The notes beneath the pieces are model-generated. The model was given only the letters and a program-made list of their open reading frames with translations, was not told the DNA's origin and ran no database searches. Positions 5,458 to 57,488 of a DNA stretch of 64,000 nucleotides are shown piece after piece. Origin of the DNA: Nitrospirota bacterium (GTDB lineage Bacteria; Nitrospirota; Thermodesulfovibrionia; UBA6902). The first letter of the stretch is position 1. The number at the start of each line of letters is the position of its first letter. The DNA lies in contig JACQZG010000006.1 in the NCBI GenBank assembly GCA_016213935.1, positions 60,622 through 124,621 of the forward strand, in the 5' to 3' direction. A program made the position numbers and the translations under genes.

Positions 5458-5796
<339 letters not shown>

Positions 5797-12215: not shown

Positions 12216-14069
12216 ATGGCCGATTACTACCACAAATTTCAGATACCCGTAATGGGAACAGGCCACTCGGCCGACACGCCCATAAGGGTTGCCCATCTCG
12301 GGATAACCTCTGTTATCTCGCTCGTAGATGACATCCTTCTCGAACAAATCAGAAAGTATTATTGCGCGAAGTTCAGCCTCCCTTACTCTGAGATTACAAG
12401 AAATGAAGAAGACGGCAGGGCAAAAAGGATAACCGCTTATCTTGACGCCGTCAATCAGATCGTCAGCCTTAAACTCGATGCCTTAAAGAGAGCGCCTTTC
12501 TCGCCCGGCAATGACAAGTGCCTGTACTTCGAACTTCTGCCTGATGAGAGCCCGCTCAGGGCTGATTACATGAAGATGGCCTCCATGAAGCCCGGCCCTG
12601 AGAGGGAGTTTTTGGAAAAAGAACTTACCGGGAAGATGCTTCCCGGCTCTATCGATGTGAACATAATGGCGAAGCTCGACAACACGAATTATGACGCAGA
12701 CGGCAATCCTCTTCCTGACGAATACAGCGACGCGAAGGCCGCGCTGAGAGGTTATGCTAAGAGTTCCTTAAAGTCCGCGGTCGAGCTTTCAGCAGGCATG
12801 AACCAGAGGCTCCTTAACTACATAACCGAGTTCAGTGATTTCTACAGGAATGAAAACGGAGAGATAAAGAAGAGGATAATCCTGAAGGTGAGCGATTTCC
12901 GTTCATCCATGATACAGGGGAAATTCCTTGCCAAAAAAGGGCTTGAGGTCTATGAATACCGGATAGAATCAGGGCTCAACTGCGGCGGCCATGTATTCCC
13001 CACCAACGGCGTTCTCCTCCCGGTGATACTGCGGGAGTTCAGGGAAAATCGTGAAAGGCTGGGGAGAGAGTTCCTTCCTCTGATAGAGAAATATTATGAA
13101 AAGACGGGACGGAAATTCCCGGCGTCTGCCAGAAGTTTCCGCCCGTTTGTAACTGTTCAGGGAGGCATAGGCACATATGCCGAGACCCGCAGGCTTATGG
13201 AAGATTTCGGCATGGACATAACGGGGTGGGGGACGCCTTTTCTGCTCGTTCCTGAAGCGACATGTGTTGACAGGGCAACGCTTGAGCTTCTGATGCGGGC
13301 AGGCGAAGATGACCTTTATATAAGCGACGCCTCGCCTATAGGAGTCCAATTCAGCAATGTGTACGGTACGGGAGCAGGGCTTTGGGCGAGGAAGAGGTTT
13401 AAGGAAGGAAGGGCAGGCTCTCCGTGCGGGAAGAGTTTCCTGAAATTCAACACCGAGTTCACAAAAAAGCCGATATGCCTTTCATCGAGGCAGTACGAAA
13501 AGCTGAAGCTTGAGCAGATCGCGGGGATGGATATAAATGAAGAAGAAAGAAACAGGCTCATTGAGAATGTCATTAACAAGGAATGCATCTGCGACCAGCT
13601 CGGCAACGGCTGTCGCATAGCCCTCGGTATTGTGAACGAGAAGGACGCGCCCCAATGCATGTGCCCGGGCCCCAATATAGCATGGTTCAGCAGAACCTAT
13701 TCGCTGAAGGAGATGGTCGGCCATATTTACGGCAGGATACCTTCGCTCGTGCCTCCCGAACGGCCGCACATGTTTGCAAAGGAGATCGAGCTTTATGTCG
13801 ATTATTTCGAGAAGAAGGCGGCTGATTCTCCATTAACTCAGAATGAGATAGGCACCCTCAGGGAGTTTAAAGAGAACTTCAAGAGGAGCCTCCAATTCTG
13901 CGCCGAGATTTCAAAAGGAGAGGCTTATCCCGGCGAAAATCTCAGATCTCTCGCGGATTACGTAGAAAAGCAGGGGCAGCGCTTTGAGCTTATCTATGAA
14001 AAATTTCAGAAGAAAGCCGGGAGCGCCGATTTAAAGAAGCCGCAGCTCAGTACTTCAGGCCAAGATTGA
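12216..14069 (+). CDS. Hypothetical 617-aa protein with a Cys cluster (CICDQLGNGC...CMCPGP)
   Basis: Long uninterrupted ORF with good coding character; no family recognised. Confidence 0.55.
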   Translation: MADYYHKFQIPVMGTGHSADTPIRVAHLGITSVISLVDDILLEQIRKYYCAKFSLPYSEITRNEEDGRAKRITAYLDAVNQIVSLKLDALKRAPFSPGNDKCLYFELLPDESPLRADYMKMASMKPGPEREFLEKELTGKMLPGSIDVNIMAKLDNTNYDADGNPLPDEYSDAKAALRGYAKSSLKSAVELSAGMNQRLLNYITEFSDFYRNENGEIKKRIILKVSDFRSSMIQGKFLAKKGLEVYEYRIESGLNCGGHVFPTNGVLLPVILREFRENRERLGREFLPLIEKYYEKTGRKFPASARSFRPFVTVQGGIGTYAETRRLMEDFGMDITGWGTPFLLVPEATCVDRATLELLMRAGEDDLYISDASPIGVQFSNVYGTGAGLWARKRFKEGRAGSPCGKSFLKFNTEFTKKPICLSSRQYEKLKLEQIAGMDINEEERNRLIENVINKECICDQLGNGCRIALGIVNEKDAPQCMCPGPNIAWFSRTYSLKEMVGHIYGRIPSLVPPERPHMFAKEIELYVDYFEKKAADSPLTQNEIGTLREFKENFKRSLQFCAEISKGEAYPGENLRSLADYVEKQGQRFELIYEKFQKKAGSADLKKPQLSTSGQD

Positions 14070-29609: not shown

Positions 29610-29718
29610 GCCGCGGCTGTAATCTTCCAGCCAACCTGCGTTTTTCAAGGCTGTATTGCAAAAATATTCCTCTCTTTGTTATAGTTTATACCTGAGTTTT
29701 TTCTTTGGGGAGGTCACA

Positions 29719-29919
29719 TTGAAAGAGGGAATACATCCGGAAAACAAGGCAGTGAAGGCGGTCTGCGCGTGCGGAGAGACATTCAGCGTAATGTCGACGC
29801 AGCCCTCCATTCACGTGGACATCTGTTCGAAATGCCATCCTTTCTTCACGGGCAAGCAGAAGCTCGTTGACGCCGAGGGAAGGGTCGAGAAGTTCAGAAA
29901 AAAGTACGCAAAAAAGTAG
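29719..29919 (+). CDS. rpmE: 50S ribosomal protein L31 (zinc-ribbon type), probably a TTG start
   Basis: [10 protein letters not shown]...CACGETF...[13 protein letters not shown]; the track ORF (29656) starts further upstream. Confidence 0.85.
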
Positions 29920-29932
29920 CGCCGTTATTAAA

Positions 29933-29980
29933 GGGAACCCGTTTTGTCAATATGCTATGGCAGGCGGGTTTCCTTTTTTT
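29933..29980 (+). terminator. Rho-independent terminator after rpmE
   Basis: gggaacccg...cgggtttcc followed by TTTTTTT. Confidence 0.5.
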
Positions 29981-30092
29981 ATGCCCTAAATAGATTAGGG
30001 CAGGCAGGCCGGAATGACGTTTAAACGGCCTCTCAGCTCTGCTGCGAAACAGTTAATTTGAATTGTTATTTAATCAGGAGATGTTTTAGAAG

Positions 30093-31160
30093 ATGCTGTT
30101 GGACAAATTTGAAGAGATAGAGAATAAATACAATGAGGTGACGGAACGCCTCTCTGACCCGGCCGTCTTCTCGGACTTTACCGTAAGCCAGAAGTATTCA
30201 AAGGAGCAGGCGGCTCTCGCCCCCCTTGTAAAAAAGATAAGGGAGTTCAGGAAGAACCTCGCTGATATAAGAGATACGGAAGAACTCCTCCGCTCCTCAG
30301 TTGATGATGAGATGAGAGAGCTTGCCGTGGCAGAGCTTGCCGAACTCAAGGCGAAGACGCCCCTTATCGAGAGCGAGATTAAGCTCATGCTCATTCCCCG
30401 CGACCCGCGGGACGAAAAGAACATTATCCTCGAAATCAGGGCGGGCACGGGAGGTGAAGAGGCCGCGCTATTTGCAGCTGAGCTCTTCAGGATGTACGGC
30501 AAATATGCCGAGCGCATGAAGTGGAAGGTTGAGATAATGGATGTGAGTTCCACAGGGCTCGGCGGGATAAAAGAAGTGGTGGCTTCGGTGCAGGGCAGGG
30601 AGGTCTACAGCCGCCTCAAGTACGAGAGCGGCACTCACCGGGTCCAGCGCGTGCCCGCAACAGAAACATCAGGCAGGGTTCATACGTCGGCCGTGACGGT
30701 TGCCGTTCTGCCGGAAGCTGAAGAAGTGGACGTAAAGATAGTGGAGAGCGATCTGAGGGTTGATACATACTGCGCCTCAGGCCCGGGCGGGCAGGGAGTG
30801 AATACGACATATTCAGCGGTCAGGATTGTCCATACACCTACCGGCCTTACCGTGCAGTGCCAGGACAGCCGCTCACAGATAAAGAACAGGGAAAAGGCGA
30901 TGAAGGTGCTGAGGGCGAGGCTTTATGAACTTGAGTGCCAGAAGATTGATGCCGAGAGGGCGGAGAGCAGAAAATCACAGGTGGGCTCAGGCGACAGAAG
31001 CGAGAAGATAAGGACTTACAATTTCCCTCAGAACAGGCTCACTGACCACAGGATAGGGCTTACGCTTCACAGGCTTGCTGTTATCATGGAAGGCGACCTC
31101 GATGAGATAATAGACAGCCTGATCGCGTATTATCAGGCTGAAAAGATAAAGGAATTATAA
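30093..31160 (+). CDS. prfA: Peptide chain release factor 1
   Basis: GGQ motif ([11 protein letters not shown]) and the PxT-region context; RF1 length. Confidence 0.95.
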
Positions 31161-31162
31161 AG

Positions 31163-32026
31163 ATGAATGCCATGCGTAAGATAAGAGATGTTTCGGAATT
31201 TCTCGGCGGACGCGGAATCACTTCTGCCGAAAGAGAGGCTGAATTGATCATAAGGCGCGGGCTTGGAATGGACGCTGTAACGATATACAGAGATGATCCT
31301 TCTCTCACTGAAGTCAATGAAGAGTTTGTTTCGGAAATGGCGTTGAGAAGGTCAATGCGCGAGCCGCTTCAGTATATACTGGGAAGCGTGGATTTCATGG
31401 GGCTTGAGATATCGGTCGGGAAAGGTGTTTTAATCCCGAGGCCCGAGACAGAGCTTTTGGTTGAACAGGCTGTAAAGATAGCTCACAGCTATCAGCTATC
31501 AGCTATCAGCAAAGAATTAACAATTCTCGACCTCTGCACGGGAAGCGGATGTATCGCTCTTGCTCTTGCGTCGGAATTCAGAAACGCCCGTGTCCTCGGC
31601 GTCGACATCTCGGATGACGCGCTGAGCTACGCAATAAAGAATGCGGAGATAAACGGCATTTTAAACGCCTCTTTTATTAAAGGGGACCTCTTTAAGCCGC
31701 TAAGCCCTAACCTTTCTTTTGACCTCATAATCTCCAATCCCCCTTATATAAAAAGCGGGGATATTTCTTCACTTCAGCCCGAGATAAGTGAGTGGGAGCC
31801 TTTAAACGCGCTTGACGGCGGCCATGACGGCCTTCTTTTATACAGGAAGACAATTCTTGCGGCATGCGATTTTTTAAATGACAAAGGCATGCTGATATTT
31901 GAGCTTGGCGCAGGATGTGCCGAAGATGTTGTATCTTTGATGAAGAGCGCAGGATACATTAATATTGAAACCATGAAAGATTACGCAGGCATAGAGAGGA
32001 TAGTAAGCGCGCGATGGACAAGATAG
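31163..32026 (+). CDS. prmC: Release factor glutamine N5-methyltransferase (HemK/PrmC)
   Basis: DLCTGSGCIALAL SAM motif I and NPPY catalytic motif; directly follows prfA. Confidence 0.9.
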   Translation: MNAMRKIRDVSEFLGGRGITSAEREAELIIRRGLGMDAVTIYRDDPSLTEVNEEFVSEMALRRSMREPLQYILGSVDFMGLEISVGKGVLIPRPETELLVEQAVKIAHSYQLSAISKELTILDLCTGSGCIALALASEFRNARVLGVDISDDALSYAIKNAEINGILNASFIKGDLFKPLSPNLSFDLIISNPPYIKSGDISSLQPEISEWEPLNALDGGHDGLLLYRKTILAACDFLNDKGMLIFELGAGCAEDVVSLMKSAGYINIETMKDYAGIERIVSARWTR

Positions 32027-44203: not shown

Positions 44204-46099
44204 ATGAACCGCTACGTTATTCTCGGCACAGCCGGACACATTGACCACGGAAAGAGCGCGCTTGTTAAGGCGCTCACAGGCACAGACCCTGACAGGCTGA
44301 AGGAAGAGAAGGCGAGGGGAATCACCATTGACCTCGGTTTTGCAGACCTCTCATATCCCGACGGGCTCAGGGTGGGCATCATCGATGTGCCGGGGCATGA
44401 GAGGCTTGTGAAGAACATGCTTGCGGGCGCAAGCGGTATCGATATCGTCCTCATGGTGATAGCGGCTGACGAAGGAATAATGCCGCAGAGCAGAGAGCAC
44501 CTCGCCATCTGCAACCTTCTCAAAGTGAAGAAGGGCATCATCGCCATCACAAAATCCGACCTTGTTGATAAAGAGTGGCTTTCTCTTGTCATTGAAGAGG
44601 TGAAGGAGTTTGCGAAAGGGACATTTCTCAAAGGCGCCGAAATAATCGCGGTCTCCTCAAAAACGGGCGAGAATCTTGATCTCTTAAAAGAGAAGATAAA
44701 AGAGGCGGCATCCGGCGTTGAGCCCAAGCATGAGAAGGCTGTCTTCAGGCTTCCTGTTGACAGAGTATTTACTCTTAAGGGTTTCGGCACGGTTGTCACA
44801 GGCACCTCCATTTCAGGAAGCATTAAAACGGACGCGCCTGTTGAGATACTTCCCAAGGGAATCGCGGCAAAGGTGCGGGGGCTTCAGAGCCACGGTGAGG
44901 CCATTGAAGCCGCATATGCCGGGCAGAGGGTTGCGGTAAACCTTCTTGGCGTTTCAAAGGATGAGATTCAGAGGGGGGATGTGCTGGCGACCCCGGGCAA
45001 ACTGAAGTCTTCCCACGTTGTTGACGCCGAGATAGAACTTCTTAAGGATTCTCCTCTCAATTCCCTCAAGAACAGGAGCCTCGTGCATTTCCATGCCGGC
45101 TCATCCGAGATTACCGGAAGGATAATCATATACGGAAAGGATGAACTGAAACCCGGAGAGGATGCTTTATGCCAGTTCCGCTTCCCAAAGCCGGTCGCGC
45201 TCATGGCGGGCGACAGGTACATAATCAGGCGCTTCTCCCCGCTTATGACGATTGGAGGGGGCGAGGTTATTGACCCGTCGCCGAGGAGGAGAAAGAAGGG
45301 GCAGGATATTGAGGGTCAGAGCGTCTTTGTTGAAGGTAGCCTCTCTGAAAAGATAGCCGCAAAGATACGGCAGAAAGGGCTCCAGGGCCTTTCACGCGGG
45401 GAGCTTGAAGGCTGGATAATGGCAGAGCTTGCGGACATAAATTCCGCCCTCGATAAACTTATCAGCAGGGGCGAGATCATGAAGTGCGAAGAGCGGCTCA
45501 TCCATAAAGATGCCTTTAATGATTTCTCAGGCGGCATCATCTCAATGCTCAGGGATTTTCACGCAAAGAATCCGCTCAAGCCGGGCATGCCGAAAGAGGA
45601 GATACGGTCATCTTTTCAGGCTATTGACCAGCGGCACTTTGACGGTTTGCTCGCAAAAGTCAAAGATATTGTCTTTGATAAAGAGGTGATAAAGTTAAGC
45701 GCATTCAGGCTCTCTTTGAGCGAAGGAAACAAGGAAACAAGGGAGAAGATTTTAAAGGCTCTCGATGCATCGGAATTTCAGCCCCCGACAGATGAAGAAC
45801 TCGCCGCACTGGCCAGGGTTGACAAGAAAGAGGTGGCCGAGATACTTAAGATAATGGCAAAGGAAGGGGAGATTGTGAGGATAAAGGACTCCATATATAT
45901 ATCAAAGCCAAACCATTCAAAGATGATCGAGAGGCTGAAGGGCTTTTACTCGAAAAAAGCCGAGATGACGGTCGGCGAGTTCCGAGATATTCTTAACACA
46001 TCGAGAAAATACGCGCTCCCTTTCCTTGAATATCTCGACGGCAGCAGGATAACGATGAGGGTGGGCGACGTTAGGAAGTTTCTTTATAAAGGGCAGTGA
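44204..46099 (+). CDS. selB: Selenocysteine-specific translation elongation factor
   Basis: GTAGHIDHGKSALVKALTG G1 motif, DVPGHERL, and winged-helix mRNA-binding C-terminal domains; total 631 aa. Confidence 0.92.
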   Translation: MNRYVILGTAGHIDHGKSALVKALTGTDPDRLKEEKARGITIDLGFADLSYPDGLRVGIIDVPGHERLVKNMLAGASGIDIVLMVIAADEGIMPQSREHLAICNLLKVKKGIIAITKSDLVDKEWLSLVIEEVKEFAKGTFLKGAEIIAVSSKTGENLDLLKEKIKEAASGVEPKHEKAVFRLPVDRVFTLKGFGTVVTGTSISGSIKTDAPVEILPKGIAAKVRGLQSHGEAIEAAYAGQRVAVNLLGVSKDEIQRGDVLATPGKLKSSHVVDAEIELLKDSPLNSLKNRSLVHFHAGSSEITGRIIIYGKDELKPGEDALCQFRFPKPVALMAGDRYIIRRFSPLMTIGGGEVIDPSPRRRKKGQDIEGQSVFVEGSLSEKIAAKIRQKGLQGLSRGELEGWIMAELADINSALDKLISRGEIMKCEERLIHKDAFNDFSGGIISMLRDFHAKNPLKPGMPKEEIRSSFQAIDQRHFDGLLAKVKDIVFDKEVIKLSAFRLSLSEGNKETREKILKALDASEFQPPTDEELAALARVDKKEVAEILKIMAKEGEIVRIKDSIYISKPNHSKMIERLKGFYSKKAEMTVGEFRDILNTSRKYALPFLEYLDGSRITMRVGDVRKFLYKGQ

Positions 46100-46153
46100 T
46101 TACGGCTTCAATTAGGGATGCTCATCTGATACAATAGGCTGTAACTTATTATT

Positions 46154-46252
46154 GGGAGCGTATAGGGTTCTGGTGTCTCTCCCGGACTTCAAATCCGGTG
46201 TTGCCTGGCCAAAACCGGGCAGGGTGGGTTCGATTCCCACACGCTCCCGCCA
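46154..46252 (+). tRNA. selC: tRNA-Sec (UCA anticodon), about 99 nt including the encoded CCA
   Basis: GGGAGCG...cggacTTCAAAtccg anticodon loop, a long variable arm and GGGTTCGATTCCCAC T-arm ending CCA; sits 55 nt after selB. Confidence 0.85.
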
Positions 46253-48040: not shown

Positions 48041-48459
48041 TAAGTGTATATCACTTTATGCCCCCGCGCAAACAGCGGAAAGTTGTGTGGAGAGTTCGCC
48101 TTCTTGAAGGGGGTGATTGAAATCTTTACCTCATTGCCGTCTTGATTTATAATAATAAAATCGTAAAGTTGGGGGTCGGCTGGCTATGGATGAAGACAAA
48201 GAGAATAATTATTCCGGGCAGTTAGGAGAGGAGATTTCTTTCAGCGGGGGGGAAGCGCCTGCAGGAGGTGAGAATTCCCCCGAGGCAACTGAATACCGGA
48301 AATTCGGAAGAAGGACATTAAGGGACAGAAGAAGTCTATGGAAAAATTCCAAGTATAAAGGGCCTAATCGGAGATTTCGAAACAGGAGGAGCAGAAAGGA
48401 CAGAAGAGACGGCAACGAGCCCGTGGATGATCTCGGAAAGTATATCCCGTAGGATATAG

Positions 48460-49014
48460 CTACTCATAGTGGAAGTCGTAGAATCTCAGGCCTGCCGGGT
48501 CATCATTTTCGTGAATGGTCACTCCACGAAAAGTCCCCACCTCTTTAAAATTGTATATGTTATAGCCTTCAACAATCTTTTGGGTTACAGAATGCACCAA
48601 TGTCCCCTCCGCATTAAAAAAGTCTATCTTTAATGAGCCGGGCGGCTGGCCATGCCCCATGATAAAACATAGTGATTTGGCATCGGTGTCAAGGAGGAGA
48701 GATATCGGCCCTTTGTAAGTGACCTCCGAATAAATTGTATTTATCTTGCCCATCGGGTCCACAAAGAGTTTGCCAGCGGGTGAAAGCGTCAGGGGATTTA
48801 CAGGCTGCCCCGTGATTTCAGGCCCTGATAATGACTGCCCGGCAAAAGTCTGAGCAAAACTGCCGCCGGAGGCTTTTATCAGGGCTCCGGACTTGGCATT
48901 GCTTAAATTGATTTCATTCTCTGCCAAGGCCATGCTTGCGCTTCCGAATAATAGAGTGATTATTATCAGGGCGGTAGTCTGTTGTCTCATTTGCGCCTCC
49001 TCATGAAACTTCAT
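48460..49014 (-). CDS. Hypothetical secreted protein
   Basis: N-terminal signal peptide (TALIIITLLFGSASMALA). Confidence 0.45.
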   Translation of the reverse strand: MKFHEEAQMRQQTTALIIITLLFGSASMALAENEINLSNAKSGALIKASGGSFAQTFAGQSLSGPEITGQPVNPLTLSPAGKLFVDPMGKINTIYSEVTYKGPISLLLDTDAKSLCFIMGHGQPPGSLKIDFFNAEGTLVHSVTQKIVEGYNIYNFKEVGTFRGVTIHENDDPAGLRFYDFHYE

Positions 49015-49133
49015 TAAAGTCTTGTCAACGGTAATTCTGACAAGTTAATCGGCAATGAAGACAGTTATAAGATTGAAATTATTATAGATAATATCAGCCC
49101 GTTAAGCAATTAAAGAAAGAGCAATCCGGTTTG

Positions 49134-49775
49134 TTAGGGCAATGCCTTGTTAATGCGTTTTAACCTTTCATCTTCCGATGAAATCGTAAGAACCATCTCT
49201 CCGCCGGAATTGCCCCCGAAATTTTCAAAAGCTCCCACAAGAAGATAGTCTATTGTCTTTCGGAGGTTTGAGCTGTCATCCTGGATGTTGGCCTTGCAGG
49301 TCCAAAGGGGTTTTGAACTGCCTGAAAAATTTTCAGAGGCAAAGAGGCGGAGCAGAAGGTGTTTTGTATACTCGATCTCCGTGCTTGTGCTGCGTTTGCT
49401 CTCGAAGCGCCCCGTAAAAGCGTTTAACGCAAAGCCGCTGTCGGTTGTTGAGGCTGTTTTGCCCGTGTCTATGCCGTATTCGAAAAGAAGGACATAATCC
49501 GCGTCTGAAATATTTTCCACAGGCTTATAACCATAAGCCGAGAGGGCTTTGTTTATCTTTTCCGCGGTCTCCATCTCGAGTATGAGGTTTCGGGTCTCTT
49601 TTTTAGTGTAGACCATGACCCTTTTCTTTTCTGAAAGCCGGAGGTTATCAGCCGTGTCAGCATGGAGATGAATGTCATATTTTGCGGCATGGCCGGCACA
49701 GGCGTAAAGAAATATCGCTGTGCAGGAGGAGATGCCCGCAGCAACGAGTAATATTATAAATCTCATTATTTTCAT
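49134..49775 (-). CDS. Hypothetical lipoprotein
   Basis: Signal peptide with a candidate lipobox (GISSC). Confidence 0.45.
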   Translation of the reverse strand: MKIMRFIILLVAAGISSCTAIFLYACAGHAAKYDIHLHADTADNLRLSEKKRVMVYTKKETRNLILEMETAEKINKALSAYGYKPVENISDADYVLLFEYGIDTGKTASTTDSGFALNAFTGRFESKRSTSTEIEYTKHLLLRLFASENFSGSSKPLWTCKANIQDDSSNLRKTIDYLLVGAFENFGGNSGGEMVLTISSEDERLKRINKALP

Positions 49776-49912
49776 TGGTAAAAAAACTGAAAATGCTGTT
49801 TGACGCCGCTTGATTTGAGAGTATTATAAAACATTTGTGTCAGGCATCGCCTAATAAGAAGGAGAGAGTTGGATTAAATGAGGGGGTGGTGGGCGGAAAC
49901 TGTAACAGCCTT

Positions 49913-51022
49913 TTATCTGCTGTATGAATTGCTTTTCAGCTTTCCTCCGACAGGCCCGCCTTCGATCATATTCATCAGCTCTTCAGGCAATGGAGAAGTG
50001 GTGACCGCCTGATCTCTTGATATGCTGCCTTCTCTGAAAAGCTTCAGCAATGACTGGTTCATTGTCTGCATACCGTATTTTGACTGGCCGGTCTGCATCA
50101 TTGAATAAACCTGTTCAATCTTGCCTTCCCTGATAAGGTTCCTTATCCCGGGGGTCGGGACAAAGACCTCTGCGGCCATGCACCTTCCGCCGCCCTGCCT
50201 TGCAAGCAGGTTCTGAGATATTATTCCTTCAAGGACAAATGAGAGTTGGACTCTCACCTGTGACTGCTGCCCTTGAGGGAATATATCCAGTATACGAGTG
50301 ATGGTTTGCACCGAGGTGTTCGTATGAAGAGTTCCAAATGTAAGGTGGCCTGTTTCAGCAATTGTCATCGCGGCCTCGACCGTCTCGAGATCTCTCATCT
50401 CTCCGATAAGCACGACATCAGGGTCCTGCCTAAGTATGTAGCGCAGGGCGTTCTTGAATGATTCCGTGTCAGAGCCGACCTCCCTCTGGTTTACGAGGCA
50501 CTTCTGATGATTATGCAGGAATTCTATCGGGTCTTCGATCGTTATTATATGGCCTGACTGTTCTTTGTTTATCTTGTCTATTATCGCGGCGAGAGTGGAA
50601 GATTTGCCAGAACCAGTAGGGCCTGTCACAAGGATAAGCCCTCTCGGTTTTGTCGTGAACTCTTCACTGACAACGGGCGGAAGCCCGAGCTTTTCAAAGG
50701 GCATTATCTCATAAGGTATCGTCCTTAATGCTGCGGACATCGCGCCTCTCTGCATGAACATGTTTGCCCTGAACCTGCAGAGGCCTTTTACGCCGAAAGA
50801 CAGGTCAAGCTCGTTAGTCTCTTCGAACTTGTTCTTCTGCTTGTCCGTAAGCACGCTGTAGAGGAGCGCCTTTGTGTCGGATGGCGAAAGGATAATGTCA
50901 TTGGCAGGGATAAGTTCCCCGTCTATCCTCATGCGGGGTGGCGACCCTGAGCTTATATGAAGGTCTGACCCGCCCTTTTTAACGAGTATCTCAAGGAGTT
51001 CGTATAATGTAGGTCCCGGCAT
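49913..51022 (-). CDS. pilT: Type IV pilus retraction ATPase PilT
   Basis: GLILVTGPTGSGKSSTLAA Walker A, the ...HIITIEDPIEF... block and His box. Confidence 0.9.
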   Translation of the reverse strand: MPGPTLYELLEILVKKGGSDLHISSGSPPRMRIDGELIPANDIILSPSDTKALLYSVLTDKQKNKFEETNELDLSFGVKGLCRFRANMFMQRGAMSAALRTIPYEIMPFEKLGLPPVVSEEFTTKPRGLILVTGPTGSGKSSTLAAIIDKINKEQSGHIITIEDPIEFLHNHQKCLVNQREVGSDTESFKNALRYILRQDPDVVLIGEMRDLETVEAAMTIAETGHLTFGTLHTNTSVQTITRILDIFPQGQQSQVRVQLSFVLEGIISQNLLARQGGGRCMAAEVFVPTPGIRNLIREGKIEQVYSMMQTGQSKYGMQTMNQSLLKLFREGSISRDQAVTTSPLPEELMNMIEGGPVGGKLKSNSYSR

Positions 51023-51065
51023 GTAATAATTTTAAGGTTTTGCCTGATAATTTGCAACAGAGGTT

Positions 51066-51980
51066 TTATTTTTTTAAAAGAACTTTGCCGTAAAGGAGGG
51101 TTTCTATCTCTTCTTCATCAGCTTCAGGCAGGGCAATGTTGTCAAAAAGCTTCCAAGTTTCAACATGCTCTGCCGAAGAGCCCGGAGCCATACTTTTCAG
51201 CGGGGAGAGGGTCTCCATTTCGAGCATGAAATCGTTTACATATGTTTCGTATGAAACTCCGAAATCAGGGTATAAAGACCCTTCCCGATGCTTGCAGTGT
51301 TTGATGAAAAGATGGTTATTATTGAAGTACGCGGCCCAGCCTTTTTCATTTGGGATGCCTAACTTGAACGGCTGCTGTACGGCCGGGTCTTGCCTGAGCA
51401 TTATGTATTTATTTCTCAAAAAAAGCCTCGGGTCGTTTAATTCCGAATACGGCCATAAAGAAATTATCCTGTTAGGAAGCAGGCCGGTATCTTTCCCTGT
51501 ATTCGGGATTATCTCTGTGCCTCCCGTTGCCATAGCGGTCAGGCTCCAGACGGATAATTCAACAGGCGCATTGCCTTTATTGATAAGGCGGTGAAGCAGA
51601 TGCACTTCAGTGCTGTCAGATGACAGCGTGATCTCCATCTCCTTCTTAATACCGGTCAATCTCTCAACATCCTGCGAAAGTTTTATTCCATCTTGAATTT
51701 CATGCCATGCTACAGGCGAATTATCAGGAACATATGTGCGCACTCTGTCTTCGGGGCTGTGCCAGAGGCGATGCCCTCCGTATATCCTCCATTCGTCCCC
51801 TCCGGTCATTCCTTTAGTAGACTTTATAACGCAGAGTTCATTCTTTTTGCCAACGAACCCGTATCTTATTATTCTCGGCCCGACATCAGTTGTTGCCACA
51901 AGGTCAACAACCCCGTTTGAAATCTGAACGCAGTTTTCCCATCCAGCAAATGATATTTTTTTTATGGTCACGTTCGGCAT
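51066..51980 (-). CDS. Hypothetical 304-aa protein
   Basis: Good coding ORF immediately downstream of pilT; no family recognised. Confidence 0.5.
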   Translation of the reverse strand: MPNVTIKKISFAGWENCVQISNGVVDLVATTDVGPRIIRYGFVGKKNELCVIKSTKGMTGGDEWRIYGGHRLWHSPEDRVRTYVPDNSPVAWHEIQDGIKLSQDVERLTGIKKEMEITLSSDSTEVHLLHRLINKGNAPVELSVWSLTAMATGGTEIIPNTGKDTGLLPNRIISLWPYSELNDPRLFLRNKYIMLRQDPAVQQPFKLGIPNEKGWAAYFNNNHLFIKHCKHREGSLYPDFGVSYETYVNDFMLEMETLSPLKSMAPGSSAEHVETWKLFDNIALPEADEEEIETLLYGKVLLKK

Positions 51981-52210
51981 AAGATTTCCCTAAAATTATA
52001 CACATTGTTGCTCAATATAGTTACCTTCATGGTATTGAATTAGCGCATAAGGTATTTACCCTGATAATACGAAGCTATTTACCTGAGGAAGCTGTTTTTG
52101 CCTCTTTCAAAGGCTTCAATTCGGTTTTTTATCAATTCACATTCATTCAACCGTATTTGCACAGCAAAAACTCATTAAAATCAATAGGTTCACAAAATTA
52201 TATTTTTTGC

Positions 52211-52239
52211 TTGACATATACAATATATTGTGGTTTAAT
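52211..52239 (+). promoter_or_regulatory. Putative nrdJ promoter (TTGACA, 17 nt, TTTAAT) with an NrdR box in the spacer
   Basis: ataCAATATATTGtgg at 52218-52233 matches 14 of 16 positions of the NrdR consensus acaCwAtATaTwGtgt; ACAATATATTGT is a perfect 12-bp palindrome. Confidence 0.6.
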
Positions 52240-52372
52240 TTCCTATCTCATCTAAATAGAGTATAATTACTTTGCCACTCTAAAAAATAATATTTGCTGA
52301 ATCAGGCAAACAGCAGGGTGGTTTTATTTTAGAAATCAATTAATATCGTTTAATTTTTTATAAGGAGATGTT

Positions 52373-53767
52373 ATGGCAGAATTATTATCCGGCAAATTGA
52401 ATCTATTGCCAAACGCGTTGAAAGTGATCCAGAAGAGATACTTACGAAAGGATGAAGAAGGCAATGTCATCGAGAGCCCTGATGATATGTTCAGGAGGGT
52501 CGCAAGGGTCATTGCATCCGCAGACGCTAAATTCGGCACATCCGAGCCCAGGATCAAAGAGGTTGAAGAAGAATTTTATAACCTGATTACGTCGCTGAAA
52601 TTTCTGCCGAACAGCCCAACTCTCATGAATGCCGGAAGAAGGCTGGGGCAGCTCTCGGCGTGCTTTGTCCTTCCTGTTGAGGATTCCATGGAATCCATTT
52701 TCGAGGCTGTGAAGAATGCCGCGCTTATCCATAAGTCCGGAGGGGGTACAGGATTCTCTTTTTCAAGGCTCCGGCCAAAGGGCGATATAGTCGGCTCCAC
52801 CAAAGGCGTATCTTCAGGCCCCATCTCATTCATGACGGTCTTTGATTCAGCTACAGAAGCGATTAAGCAGGGCGGTACGAGAAGAGGCGCCAATATGGGC
52901 ATGCTCCGCATTGACCATCCCGACATACTCGAATTTATAACTTCAAAGGATGACTGCAGCAAGCTCAACAATTTCAATATCTCTGTCGCGCTCACCGACG
53001 AATTTATGGATGCCTTTGAAAAAGACGGCGAGTATGAGCTGAAGAATCCGCACGACGGCAAGGCTACGCGCAGGCTGAAGGCAAAATATGTCTTTAATCT
53101 TATCGTAAATCATGCATGGAAGAACGGGGAACCCGGCATAATCTTCCTTGACAGGATGAACAGCGACAACCCTACCCCGGGCATAGGGCAGATCGAGAGC
53201 ACAAATCCATGCGGCGAACAGCCTTTGCTTCCCTACGAATCCTGCAATCTCGGCTCCATAAATCTTTCTAAATTCGTGAAGGGGTTTGAAACATCCGCAG
53301 ATGCAAAAAGTTTCTGCGTTGACTGGGAATCGCTCGGGGAGACGGTGCACTCAGCCGTGCACTTTCTTGACAATGTGATAGAAGTGAACAAGTATCCTAT
53401 CGAGAAGATAGAGGAGATGACAAAGGCCAACAGAAAGATAGGGCTCGGCGTGATGGGGTGGGCGGACATGCTCGTGCAGCTTGGCGTACCCTATAACTCT
53501 GAAGAGGCTATCTTGCTCGGCACGGAAGTAATGAAGTTCATACAGGATGAGGGCAGGAAGATGTCGTCCGAGCTTGCTGAGGAGAGAGGCGTCTTCCCGA
53601 CTCACGGCGAAAGCATTTATAAAGACAGGATGAAGCTCAGAAACGCCACCGTCACGACCATTGCCCCAACCGGCACGCTCTCTATAATAGCAGGCTGTTC
53701 AAGCGGCATAGAGCCTCTCTTTGCGGTATCTTTTGTCCGCAATGTCCTTGAGGGGACAAAACTTTAG
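52373..53767 (+). CDS. nrdJ: Class II (adenosylcobalamin-dependent) ribonucleotide reductase NrdJ, N-terminal 464 codons, ending at an in-frame TAG
   Basis: NrdJ-type N-terminus [24 protein letters not shown]...; terminates ...GTKL* and continues in the same frame (next feature). Confidence 0.85.
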
Positions 53768-53770
53768 GAG

Positions 53771-54658
53771 GTGAATCCCTATTTTGAAAAGATGGCGAGA
53801 GAGAGGGGATTCTGGAGCAGGGAGCTTATTGAGGAGATAGCTGAGAAAGGGACGCTTCACGGAGTTGCCAATGTGCCTGATGATGTGAGAAATATCTTCA
53901 CTACGGCCCACGATATAACTCCTGAAGACCATGTAAGGATGCAGGCCGCGTTTCAGAAGCATGTTGATAACGCTGTTTCAAAGACCGTTAATTTCCCCAA
54001 CAATGCAACTCAAAAAGATGTTGAGAATGTATATCTCCTCGCATATACGCTTGGCTGCAAGGGCGTAACCGTATACAGGGACGGGTCGAGGGAGGAGCAG
54101 GTCCTCTCAACAGGCAAGACTGCGGGCACCGATGAGAAGAAGAGCGACTCGCCCCAGAAGATAGTTCCCAAGAAGAGGCCTGAGACTATTTACGGCACAA
54201 CTACCCTTATGAATACCGGATGCGGCAATCTTTATGTAACCATTAATGAGGACCATAACGGAAACCTTTTCGAACTCTTCACACGCATGGGCAAGGCAGG
54301 AGGCTGCGCGTCAAGCCAGGCAGAGGCGATAGGAAGGCTGGTGAGCCTCGCATTCAGGAGCAATATAGACTCGCATGAGATCGTAAAACAGCTCAGGGGA
54401 ATAAGCTGCCACAGCCCTGCATGGGCAAACGGCGGAAAGATATCCTCATGTTCAGACGCCATATCAAAAGCCATTGAAAGATATGCCGAGCACGGGGATA
54501 AGGCCGACGGCAACGGCAACGGCTCGCACGGCAGGGAGAAGAAGGGGATTAAAGAGAAGATAATATTCTGCGGGGCGTGCCCGGACTGCGGAGGGGCGGT
54601 GGAGCACGAAGGCGGCTGCGCGGTATGCAGGGACTGCGGCTTTACGAAGTGTTATTAG
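53771..54658 (+). CDS. nrdJ: NrdJ C-terminal continuation (295 codons), same frame as the upstream part, includes a C-terminal Cys-rich tail
   Basis: EVNPYFEKMARERGFWSRELIEEIAEKG...VTVYRDGSREEQVL..., ending CGACPDCGGAVEHEGGCAVCRDCG. 53771 minus 52373 is 1398, a multiple of 3. Confidence 0.8.
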   Translation: MNPYFEKMARERGFWSRELIEEIAEKGTLHGVANVPDDVRNIFTTAHDITPEDHVRMQAAFQKHVDNAVSKTVNFPNNATQKDVENVYLLAYTLGCKGVTVYRDGSREEQVLSTGKTAGTDEKKSDSPQKIVPKKRPETIYGTTTLMNTGCGNLYVTINEDHNGNLFELFTRMGKAGGCASSQAEAIGRLVSLAFRSNIDSHEIVKQLRGISCHSPAWANGGKISSCSDAISKAIERYAEHGDKADGNGNGSHGREKKGIKEKIIFCGACPDCGGAVEHEGGCAVCRDCGFTKCY

Positions 54659-54899
54659 TCGGGAAGAGGTAAGGGCACTGAATCAAAACGGCGCAGCAAT
54701 GCAGTATTATGTAAAGTTCGCAGGGGCATGGGGAGCCATGTCCCTGTTTTGCTTTTCCCCTCTAAGAAGAGGGCCTGCCTGCCGGTAGGCAGGGCACAAG
54801 GGTGTGTTTAAATCGGAATCTGTTTTTTGGTCATTCCCGTCAACCTCGGCTGATCCGCTGGGGCGGAAAAACGGGAATCCAGAATAAGGAGGTTATACT

Positions 54900-55964
54900 A
54901 TGGCAACATTCGAACAAGAAGAAGTAGTAAAAAAGGAACTAAAAAATGTTCTTGCAGGTTTATCTCAAATTAATCCTAAAGAGTTAGTTAGAGCAAATGA
55001 GCTTGGAAATGACTTCAACTTTGAGCCCGGTCTTCAAGCATTTGAAAGGACTCTGAAACTTTTTCAAGATCTCCATGAAAGCAATCTCGATAATGTTTCG
55101 CATAATGTATTAAAGACTATTTCAACTAATGCAAAGGATGCGCATGCCAAATTAACTGCTATACAAACATTTTCACCTGCGCAACATCAAAGTCCGTTTA
55201 ATGTCCGCAATGATTTAATTAATCAACTCCGTGATTCATATGATACTTATTTTGCTGCAGTTTCTCCTGTGATTGCTTATTCAATAAGAAAAGGAACAGA
55301 TTTTGGAGCGCTTGAAAAGAAAGCTCAGGAAGCAGTTTCTTCCATGGATGCCTATAATAAAGACCAAATAGAGAAACAAAAACATGTTTCTTCTGAGATG
55401 GAATCAGTACTACAAAAAGTGAGGCAGGCTGCTGCTGAGGTTGGTGTTTCTCAACATGCTACTCATTTTAAAGAAGAAGCACAAAGTCATGAAGTGTCAT
55501 CGAAGAAATGGCTACGGGCAACAATAGTTGCCGCGATACTGACAATTGCATGGGGGATTATATCTTTTTTTATTCACCCAAAAGGACATCCCATAGAGAC
55601 GGATATCTCAACAGCACAAGCAGCTCAATTAATAGCACCATCAACATCACAGGTAATTCAATTTACTGTAGCAAAAATCATAATTCTGTCAGCACTTTAT
55701 TATATTCTTGTTTGGTGTGCAAGAAATTATAATGCACATCTTCACAATTTCGTGGTAAATAAACATAGACAAAATTCACTAAGCACTTTTGAAACATTTG
55801 TTAAAGCTGCAGGAAATGATCAAGATACAAAAAATGCTGTATTGATTCAAGCAACTCAATCAATCTTTTCCGCACAATCAAGTGGATACATCCACAAAGA
55901 ACATGAAGCAGAATCACCCAATAAGTTTATTGAGATATTGCGAGGAACTGGACAAAGAACGTAG
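54900..55964 (+). CDS. Hypothetical protein (354 aa) with a long N-terminal helical/coiled-coil region and two TM helices; AT-rich
   Basis: TM helices LRATIVAAILTIAWGIISFFI and VAKIIILSALYYILVWCA; codon usage differs from its neighbours. Confidence 0.5.
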   Translation: MATFEQEEVVKKELKNVLAGLSQINPKELVRANELGNDFNFEPGLQAFERTLKLFQDLHESNLDNVSHNVLKTISTNAKDAHAKLTAIQTFSPAQHQSPFNVRNDLINQLRDSYDTYFAAVSPVIAYSIRKGTDFGALEKKAQEAVSSMDAYNKDQIEKQKHVSSEMESVLQKVRQAAAEVGVSQHATHFKEEAQSHEVSSKKWLRATIVAAILTIAWGIISFFIHPKGHPIETDISTAQAAQLIAPSTSQVIQFTVAKIIILSALYYILVWCARNYNAHLHNFVVNKHRQNSLSTFETFVKAAGNDQDTKNAVLIQATQSIFSAQSSGYIHKEHEAESPNKFIEILRGTGQRT

Positions 55965-57047: not shown

Positions 57048-57488
57048 ATGCGCCCGGAATGGGATGATTATTTCATAGAGATAGCAAAGGTCGTATCTTC
57101 GAGGTCAACATGCCTCAGGAGGAGATACGGCGCGGTTATTGTAAAAGACAAGGTGATAATAAGCACCGGATATAACGGCTCGCCCCGCGGCATAGACAAC
57201 TGCATAGACCTCGGCAGGTGCGTTAGGAAGGAGCAGAACATTCCCTCGGGTGAGAGGTATGAACTCTGCGAGGCCGTGCATGCCGAGCAGAATGCCATAA
57301 TCAACGCCCCGCCCGAACGGATGAAAGACGCTGTCATATATATCGCCGGTTTTGAGGAAGATAAAAGCTTTGCCAACGGTATGCCGTGCAAACTCTGCAG
57401 CCGGATGATACGGAACTCGCAGATTAAAGAGGTCATATACCTCAAGAGCGGCGGCGGGCTTGAACGCGTTGATGTGCAGAACCTTTGA
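57048..57488 (+). CDS. dCMP deaminase (ComEB-like cytidine/deoxycytidylate deaminase)
   Basis: HAEQNAI zinc motif and PCKLCSRMI. Confidence 0.85.
   Translation: MRPEWDDYFIEIAKVVSSRSTCLRRRYGAVIVKDKVIISTGYNGSPRGIDNCIDLGRCVRKEQNIPSGERYELCEAVHAEQNAIINAPPERMKDAVIYIAGFEEDKSFANGMPCKLCSRMIRNSQIKEVIYLKSGGGLERVDVQNL

Follow-up and report, generated by a model that had tools for sequence, protein, structure and literature searches.

The ribonucleotide reductase (RNR) NrdA of Aeromonas phage Aeh1 is encoded by 'genes in pieces', split by a homing-endonuclease gene within the catalytic domain, and has been reported to be active. Among class II RNRs, Pseudomonas aeruginosa and other Proteobacteria present a split enzyme composed of NrdJa (734 amino acids, aa) and NrdJb (229 aa). 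Their conserved point of division leaves the whole catalytic and cofactor-binding core in NrdJa, and the sole task of NrdJb is thiol-disulfide exchange (Crona et al. 2015, PMC4520616). Turnover of class II RNRs depends on their cysteine-rich C-terminal domain, which supplies the active site with electrons (Loderer et al. 2017, PMC5704485). In Thermodesulfovibrionia/Nitrospirota, NrdJ is an intact single chain of 750-790 residues. Here, we analyzed a class II RNR gene, nrdJ (52373-54658, + strand), carried in a stretch of 64,000 nucleotides (nt) from an uncultured Thermodesulfovibrionia-like Nitrospirota population (assembly GCA_016213935.1, contig JACQZG010000006.1, positions 60,622 to 124,621), hereafter the window. 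The reading frame of this gene is broken by a single amber codon, which is probably a real, young and unfixed nonsense allele captured in the assembly consensus.

The single-chain NrdJ proteins of Thermodesulfovibrionia/Nitrospirota (for example P0001-P0006, 80-82% identity; family NF006417) have the same domain order as the window gene, which comprises 761 codon positions, and share with it the local motif EGTKL-Y-EVNPYFEK, presenting Tyr where the window gene has TAG. As in Pseudomonas NrdJa/NrdJb, a class II RNR is laid out here as two consecutive reading frames, but the window gene is cut inside the barrel domain PF02867 by a single codon, without an intergenic spacer and without any relative sharing this layout. 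In contrast to Aeh1 NrdA, no intervening mobile gene was found, and only TAG and GAG stand between the open frames. The locus also resembles an ordinary nonsense polymorphism or young pseudogene, with one disabling substitution, intact flanks and regulatory signals, unrelaxed constraint and signs of heterogeneity at the site, and it differs from that class in no respect except that nrdJ is normally essential unless a second RNR exists. Since the TAG is not conserved, it does not represent programmed recoding; either an ordinary nonsense polymorphism or a consensus artefact would account for it. In the literature, no account of in-frame stops in nrdJ or of run SRR12113402 was found, and Thermodesulfovibrio was not found among the matches listed for nrdD/nrdJ.

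Layout of the interrupted gene

The lesion consists of one in-frame TAG at 53765-53767 (+ strand), placed in the context ...GAG GGG ACA AAA CTT TAG GAG GTG AAT CCC..., and involves neither a frameshift nor a gap. The upstream open reading frame (ORF; 52373-53767) comprises 464 codons, and after the TAG the same frame runs on as EVNPYFEKMARERGF... until a second TAG at 54656-54658. The comparison with NF006417, the NCBIfam profile of the B12-dependent RNR (759 positions), revealed that the 5′ piece corresponds to positions 9-459 (E 2e-247, 823 bits) and the 3′ piece to positions 462-758 (E 2e-115, 387 bits); neither piece alone reaches the curated cut-off of 961, and both together do. Since the two pieces match adjacent stretches of one profile, the TAG occupies exactly one codon position of a colinear gene. 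The claim of a first-pass annotation, made by a model from the letters of the stretch, that exactly one in-frame TAG breaks nrdJ was therefore borne out by the sequence itself, the continuation of the frame and the adjacent profile matches. Its remark that the window carries no second RNR also held for the large ORFs that were tested.

The 5′ part (52373-53764, + strand, 464 codons) carries the all-alpha N domain of RNRs (PF00317, E 6e-26), most of the barrel and all the active-site motifs, including the N-x-C-x-E motif, present as STNPCGEQ with its NPCGE core, and it alone scores 602.7 bits against TIGR02504 (NrdJ_Z; cut-off 399.95). The 3′ part (53768-54658, + strand, 296 codons plus the TAG stop) carries the last fifth of the barrel, the TSCPD domain (PF12637) and a cysteine-rich Zn-finger tail, CGACPDCGG...CAVCRDCGFTKCY. 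The Pfam barrel domain PF02867 is itself cut by the TAG, with profile positions 1-347 found upstream and 423-523 downstream, the cut falling at about position 420 of 523. The domains, curated models, and active-site and C-terminal motifs of the NrdJ family were all found in this gene; the uninterrupted reading frame was not.

Ancestral codon, age of the lesion and population variation

The 120 best database matches of the gene belong to Nitrospirota/Thermodesulfovibrionia and are all single proteins of ~750-800 residues, the closest being 82% identical. Tyr was found at the TAG site in 30 of the 30 closest full-length proteins by alignment, and, among the top 120 matches, in 104 of the 105 proteins whose site could be placed by a simple motif search. 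Similarly, the ten closest homologues (72-76% protein identity) from 73 species-representative genomes all presented Tyr, encoded by TAT in seven and by TAC in three, the more distant homologues of this set presented V, I, L, T or P, and a stop was found at this site in none of the 73 genomes. A scan of genome contigs retrieved relatives at 76% identity or less and nothing closer, and the clustered protein collection contains neither of the two window proteins. Moreover, a degenerate DNA pattern for E-G-T-K-x-TAG-E-V-N-P had zero matches in 241 million JGI metagenome records, and a control pattern with TAN retrieved 32 contigs from the same records, 26 with TAT and 6 with TAC. The Tyr codons of the relatives indicate that the TAG lies a single third-position transversion from an ancestral Tyr codon, TAT or TAC, for which the first-pass annotation had listed several candidates (CAG, GAG, TAC and TGG among others).

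A two-ORF layout conserved among relatives, which the same annotation had set as a refuting condition, was not found, since none of the 105 related loci is split. The frame is open across the site in all the loci where it could be located, and 89 of them, in which the frame is closed by a stop at either end, present open frames of 739-879 codons. About ten database proteins of ~295 aa (P0154, P0158, P0159, P0162, P0164, P0171, P0175, P0178, P0179 and P0182), which start with 'MEGTKL(I/L)EVNP' five codons before the site, were considered as a conserved C-terminal gene and rejected as gene-calling artefacts, on the basis of two short contigs and one long contig. The contigs of loci L083 and L084 start 3 and 20 nt ahead of that ATG, as expected of first-ATG calls at a contig edge, and the long contig (L082, ENA ERZ1286166 contig_1088) comes from a frameshift-rich long-read assembly in which nrdJ is broken into 229, 68 and 296 aa.

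No further decay was observed in nrdJ, which carries exactly one lesion and whose 3′ part is as conserved as in its relatives. The identity to a 24-protein outgroup was 0.773 for the 3′ part, versus 0.730-0.752 in six intact close relatives, and 0.754 for the 5′ part, versus 0.735-0.746 in the same six. The absence of relaxed constraint downstream of the stop implies a change that either happened very recently, is not real or does no harm; if nrdJ is a pseudogene, it is a very young one. About 30 other window genes, including groEL, uvrD, dnaG, rpoD, prfA, argH, glmU, glmS, dinB, uvrA, metK, ahcY, pilT and selB, were also compared with family profiles: about two dozen matched most of their profile, the rest matched nothing, and no other broken gene was seen among them. 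Errors are not widespread in this assembly, nor is the genome in decay.

Independently assembled contigs from the same population provided evidence of variation at the stop codon. The exact look-up of the 464-residue product returned one Logan contig, from run SRR12113402 (L001, 1557 nt), which is 100% identical to 52210-53766 and ends ...AAACTTTA at 53766, one base short of the G of TAG. Full identity to the window was likewise found for the next known contig of this run (L085), which begins at 54304; the independent short Logan contigs match the window at 100% over 1557 and 2128 nt. A contig of the sibling run SRR12113406 (L118, window 48341-52239) ends 30 nt past the start of the first SRR12113402 contig (52210), and this exact overlap, equal to k-1 for k = 31, is the pattern of consecutive de Bruijn graph unitigs. 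Over 3.9 kb, the sibling-run contig differs from the window by two 1-nt indels (48451 and 48458) and three single-nucleotide polymorphisms (48437, 50666 and 50720); of these polymorphisms, two fall in pilT, each at a third codon position. These five differences point to a microdiversity of ~0.1% in the population, with contigs breaking at variable bases. Consequently, the contig end at 53766 indicates a branch of the graph between the k-mer that ends at 53766 and the one that ends at 53767, either because of a second base at 53767 or, less plausibly, because of one at 53736, where a conserved Val codon has its middle base. For an unrelated break to fall exactly at 53766, the probability was estimated at about one in a thousand, considering a gene of 2.3 kb and about three breaks. 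We infer two alleles among the reads of this population, differing at the third base of the TAG codon, with the alternative base itself deduced from the branching. Look-ups of MNPYFEK..., VNPYFEK... and EVNPYFEK... found no downstream sibling contig with the alternative allele.

The Logan contig boundaries at 54304 and 52210/52239 likewise resemble points where the graph branches. From the contig start at 54304, a variant is implied either at 54303 or at 54334, the latter being a third codon position of nrdJ.

Decoding of the stop and competing explanations

TAG ends 11 of the 53 window ORFs of at least 120 aa, among them the histidine kinase (stop at 2023-2025) and rpmE (29656-29919), just as the first-pass annotation had noted, as well as prmC and nrdJ itself, whose natural end is a TAG at which the homologues end too. 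The release factor RF1, encoded by prfA, is intact in the window (523 bits, cut-off 400), and so is PrmC. Since TAG is a common terminator and RF1 is intact, TAG is not reassigned, and its genome-wide reassignment is excluded for this window. The sole recoding machinery seen in the window is that for UGA/selenocysteine, composed of selB and tRNA-Sec (anticodon TCA), and the organism employs selenocysteine through UGA recoding. Rfam and tRNA scans of the 64 kb revealed no UAG-decoding elements and no tRNA with a CUA anticodon, only tRNA-Sec and transfer-messenger RNA (tmRNA). It was also verified that the RNA downstream of the nrdJ stop has no unusual fold that could act as a stimulatory structure (z = -1.1).

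The hexamer AGGAGG (53766-53771, + strand) draws on three codons: the last two bases of the TAG, the whole of GAG and the first base of the GTG at 53771. The first-pass annotation had placed it directly before this GTG and conceived of a re-initiation producing an NrdJa/NrdJb-like two-piece enzyme. The motif is indeed present, but it shares the first G of the GTG, leaving zero spacing, and it lies 20 nt upstream of the next ATG, at 53792; by comparison, the Shine-Dalgarno sites recognisable for 17 window genes lie 4-14 nt upstream of the start, mostly 5-6 and never 0. As the relatives present TAY GAR GTN at the same place, the AGGAGG was produced by the T/C-to-G change itself. Having this origin and sharing a base with the GTG, it is no evolved signal for translation start. 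The proposal of re-initiation is not sustained by these data, considering that the AGGAGG is a mutation by-product without spacing, that the cut falls inside the barrel and that none of the 105 loci is split. Two further candidates were rejected. The Met at 53792 (EKMAR, in most relatives EKIAK) was considered as a start specific to the TAG allele, but four intact relatives likewise have ATG there. An internal promoter for the 3′ piece was suggested by one consensus-like σ70 site inside nrdJ, TTGCCC-16-TATAAT (53661-53688, 10 of 12 matches, ~80 nt upstream of the TAG), but the count of such sites in the region equals chance (5 found versus 4.1 expected).

According to the favoured explanation, a single third-position transversion from TAT/TAC to TAG would have hit the Tyr codon of an otherwise intact nrdJ, and the resulting allele would probably still be polymorphic in the source population, with the consensus carrying TAG. 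Ribosomes would terminate at the UAG via RF1, and the 464-residue fragment released would be short of about 100 of the 523 barrel-profile positions and would have neither the TSCPD domain nor the cysteine-rich tail, by which the active site is re-reduced; this fragment is presumably inactive. At most, traces of full-length protein might be produced by near-cognate readthrough, or of the C-terminal piece by restart at GTG 53771, and such a null or strongly hypomorphic allele could be tolerated through another RNR or through co-existing wild-type cells. On balance, the TAG allele is likely to be an ordinary loss-of-function or strongly hypomorphic one, rather than the product of evolved recoding or of an evolved gene split. 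Some points weigh against this explanation. The alternative base at 53767 was deduced and not observed, and the contig end would formally fit a variant at 53736 equally well. The TAG itself is on no recorded contig of either sibling run, the exact look-up of the 464-residue product having retrieved only the contig that stops short. Finally, if nrdJ is the sole RNR, a true null allele would be too scarce to be assembled.

The first-pass annotation had named both a recent nonsense mutation and a base-call error, and both fit the ancestral Tyr, the lack of a stop or split in relatives and the unrelaxed constraint downstream. The second of these, in which the cells carry TAT/TAC and an intact gene, and the G at 53767 comes from a sequencing, polishing or bubble-resolution error or from a promoted rare variant, is unlikely, with a minor share of the probability. 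It would account for an nrdJ that is flawless save for one base, for the break of an independent assembly at this very base, which leaves the G unconfirmed, and for the failure to find the complete 464-codon ORF with its TAG on any recorded contig; on the other hand, the absence of other broken genes among the ~30 checked and the full identity of the independent contigs speak for an accurate assembly. Assemblers, in addition, usually retain the better-covered arm of a bubble, which would argue for numerous TAG reads. It is improbable that the TAG is real and dominant in a sole RNR whose cells live by efficient readthrough at UAG-GAG-GUG or by reassembly of fragments cut in the barrel. If this were true, the gene would be a newborn 'gene in pieces' observed as it arises, its AGGAGG supplied by the very mutation that split it.

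Very improbable, too, is an enzyme kept functional by suppression. In this reading, sufficient full-length NrdJ would be obtained by near-cognate UAG readthrough, with Tyr, Gln, Lys or Trp inserted, through a suppressor tRNA, or by means of pyrrolysine. The downstream part is fully conserved, the family tolerates Y, V, I, L, T and P at this site, so that nearly any inserted residue could work, and low RNR levels may suffice. Against suppression stand the TAG at a codon conserved as such in no relative (0 TAG versus 32 TAY in the JGI contigs), the regular use of TAG as a terminator with RF1 intact, a window whose recoding machinery serves only UGA and which has no CUA-anticodon tRNA, and the ordinary RNA fold after the stop. 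Marginally less probable still is a two-piece enzyme, with restart at GTG 53771 or ATG 53792 and assembly of the 464-aa fragment with one of ~290 aa into an active NrdJ. A start codon placed 3 nt past the stop makes termination-reinitiation mechanically possible, the active-site motifs are all in the first piece, with the barrel end and the redox tail in the second, and working split RNRs exist, both in phage Aeh1 (NrdA) and in Pseudomonas (NrdJa/NrdJb, PMC4520616). Nevertheless, the AGGAGG made by the mutation overlaps the GTG, and no window gene has a Shine-Dalgarno at zero spacing; the architecture is missing from all 105 related loci, the apparent C-terminal pieces in the database (MEGTKL..., ~295 aa) are contig-edge or frameshift artefacts, and the cut lies inside the barrel domain, away from the Pseudomonas site.

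As it stands, the finding matters little, being one premature stop in one haplotype or consensus of an uncultured population. It calls for caution in annotation, which will report two 'NrdJ' fragments or a pseudogene, and in metabolic reconstructions, where the genome may be mistakenly scored as RNR-less. Only an allele that had reached fixation in a sole RNR and kept its function would be of interest, as a case of a split or recoded essential enzyme originating in one step.

Regulatory signals and neighbouring genes

An NrdR-box-like palindrome, ATACAATATATTGTGG (52218-52233, + strand), with two mismatches to ACACWATATATWGTGT, lies upstream of nrdJ and is the sole window match to this consensus at up to three mismatches, with 0.27 expected per window by chance. 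No second box was found near the first at up to four mismatches, and the NrdR box of the first-pass annotation stands with the caveat that it is a single, imperfect site of this chance expectation. This site is flanked by a perfect TTGACA (52211-52216) and by TTTAAT (52234-52239), hexamers that were picked by eye; the pair is absent from the output of the promoter scan because TTTAAT does not have A at position 2. The nrdJ start is preceded by the Shine-Dalgarno AAGGAG (52362-52367, + strand), 5 nt ahead of the ATG at 52373, and 3′ of the gene there is a strong terminator-like hairpin with a 12-bp stem (54720-54747) and then a T-rich tail (54720-54757 in all, + strand).

Other features were recorded elsewhere in the window. 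The genes rpmE, prfA and prmC form a cluster (29656-32026) in which both rpmE and prmC are TAG-terminated. The selB gene (631 aa; EF-Tu GTPase and SelB winged-helix domains) is directly followed by tRNA-Sec (46154-46252), both together spanning 44204-46252. A tmRNA gene (5458-5796) with the tag peptide ANTELALAA was identified by ARAGORN and Rfam (RF00023, 174 bits). Four ORFs had no Pfam match at the thresholds used, at 12216-14069 (617 aa), 48460-49014 (184 aa), 49134-49775 (213 aa) and 54900-55964 (354 aa); the last of these lies directly downstream of nrdJ, and a Logan contig carries the same ORF. A dCMP/cytidine deaminase gene is placed near nrdJ both in the window (57048-57488) and in the contig of a distant relative (L084, 943-1407), and nrdJ and the deaminase may constitute a conserved deoxynucleotide-metabolism neighbourhood.

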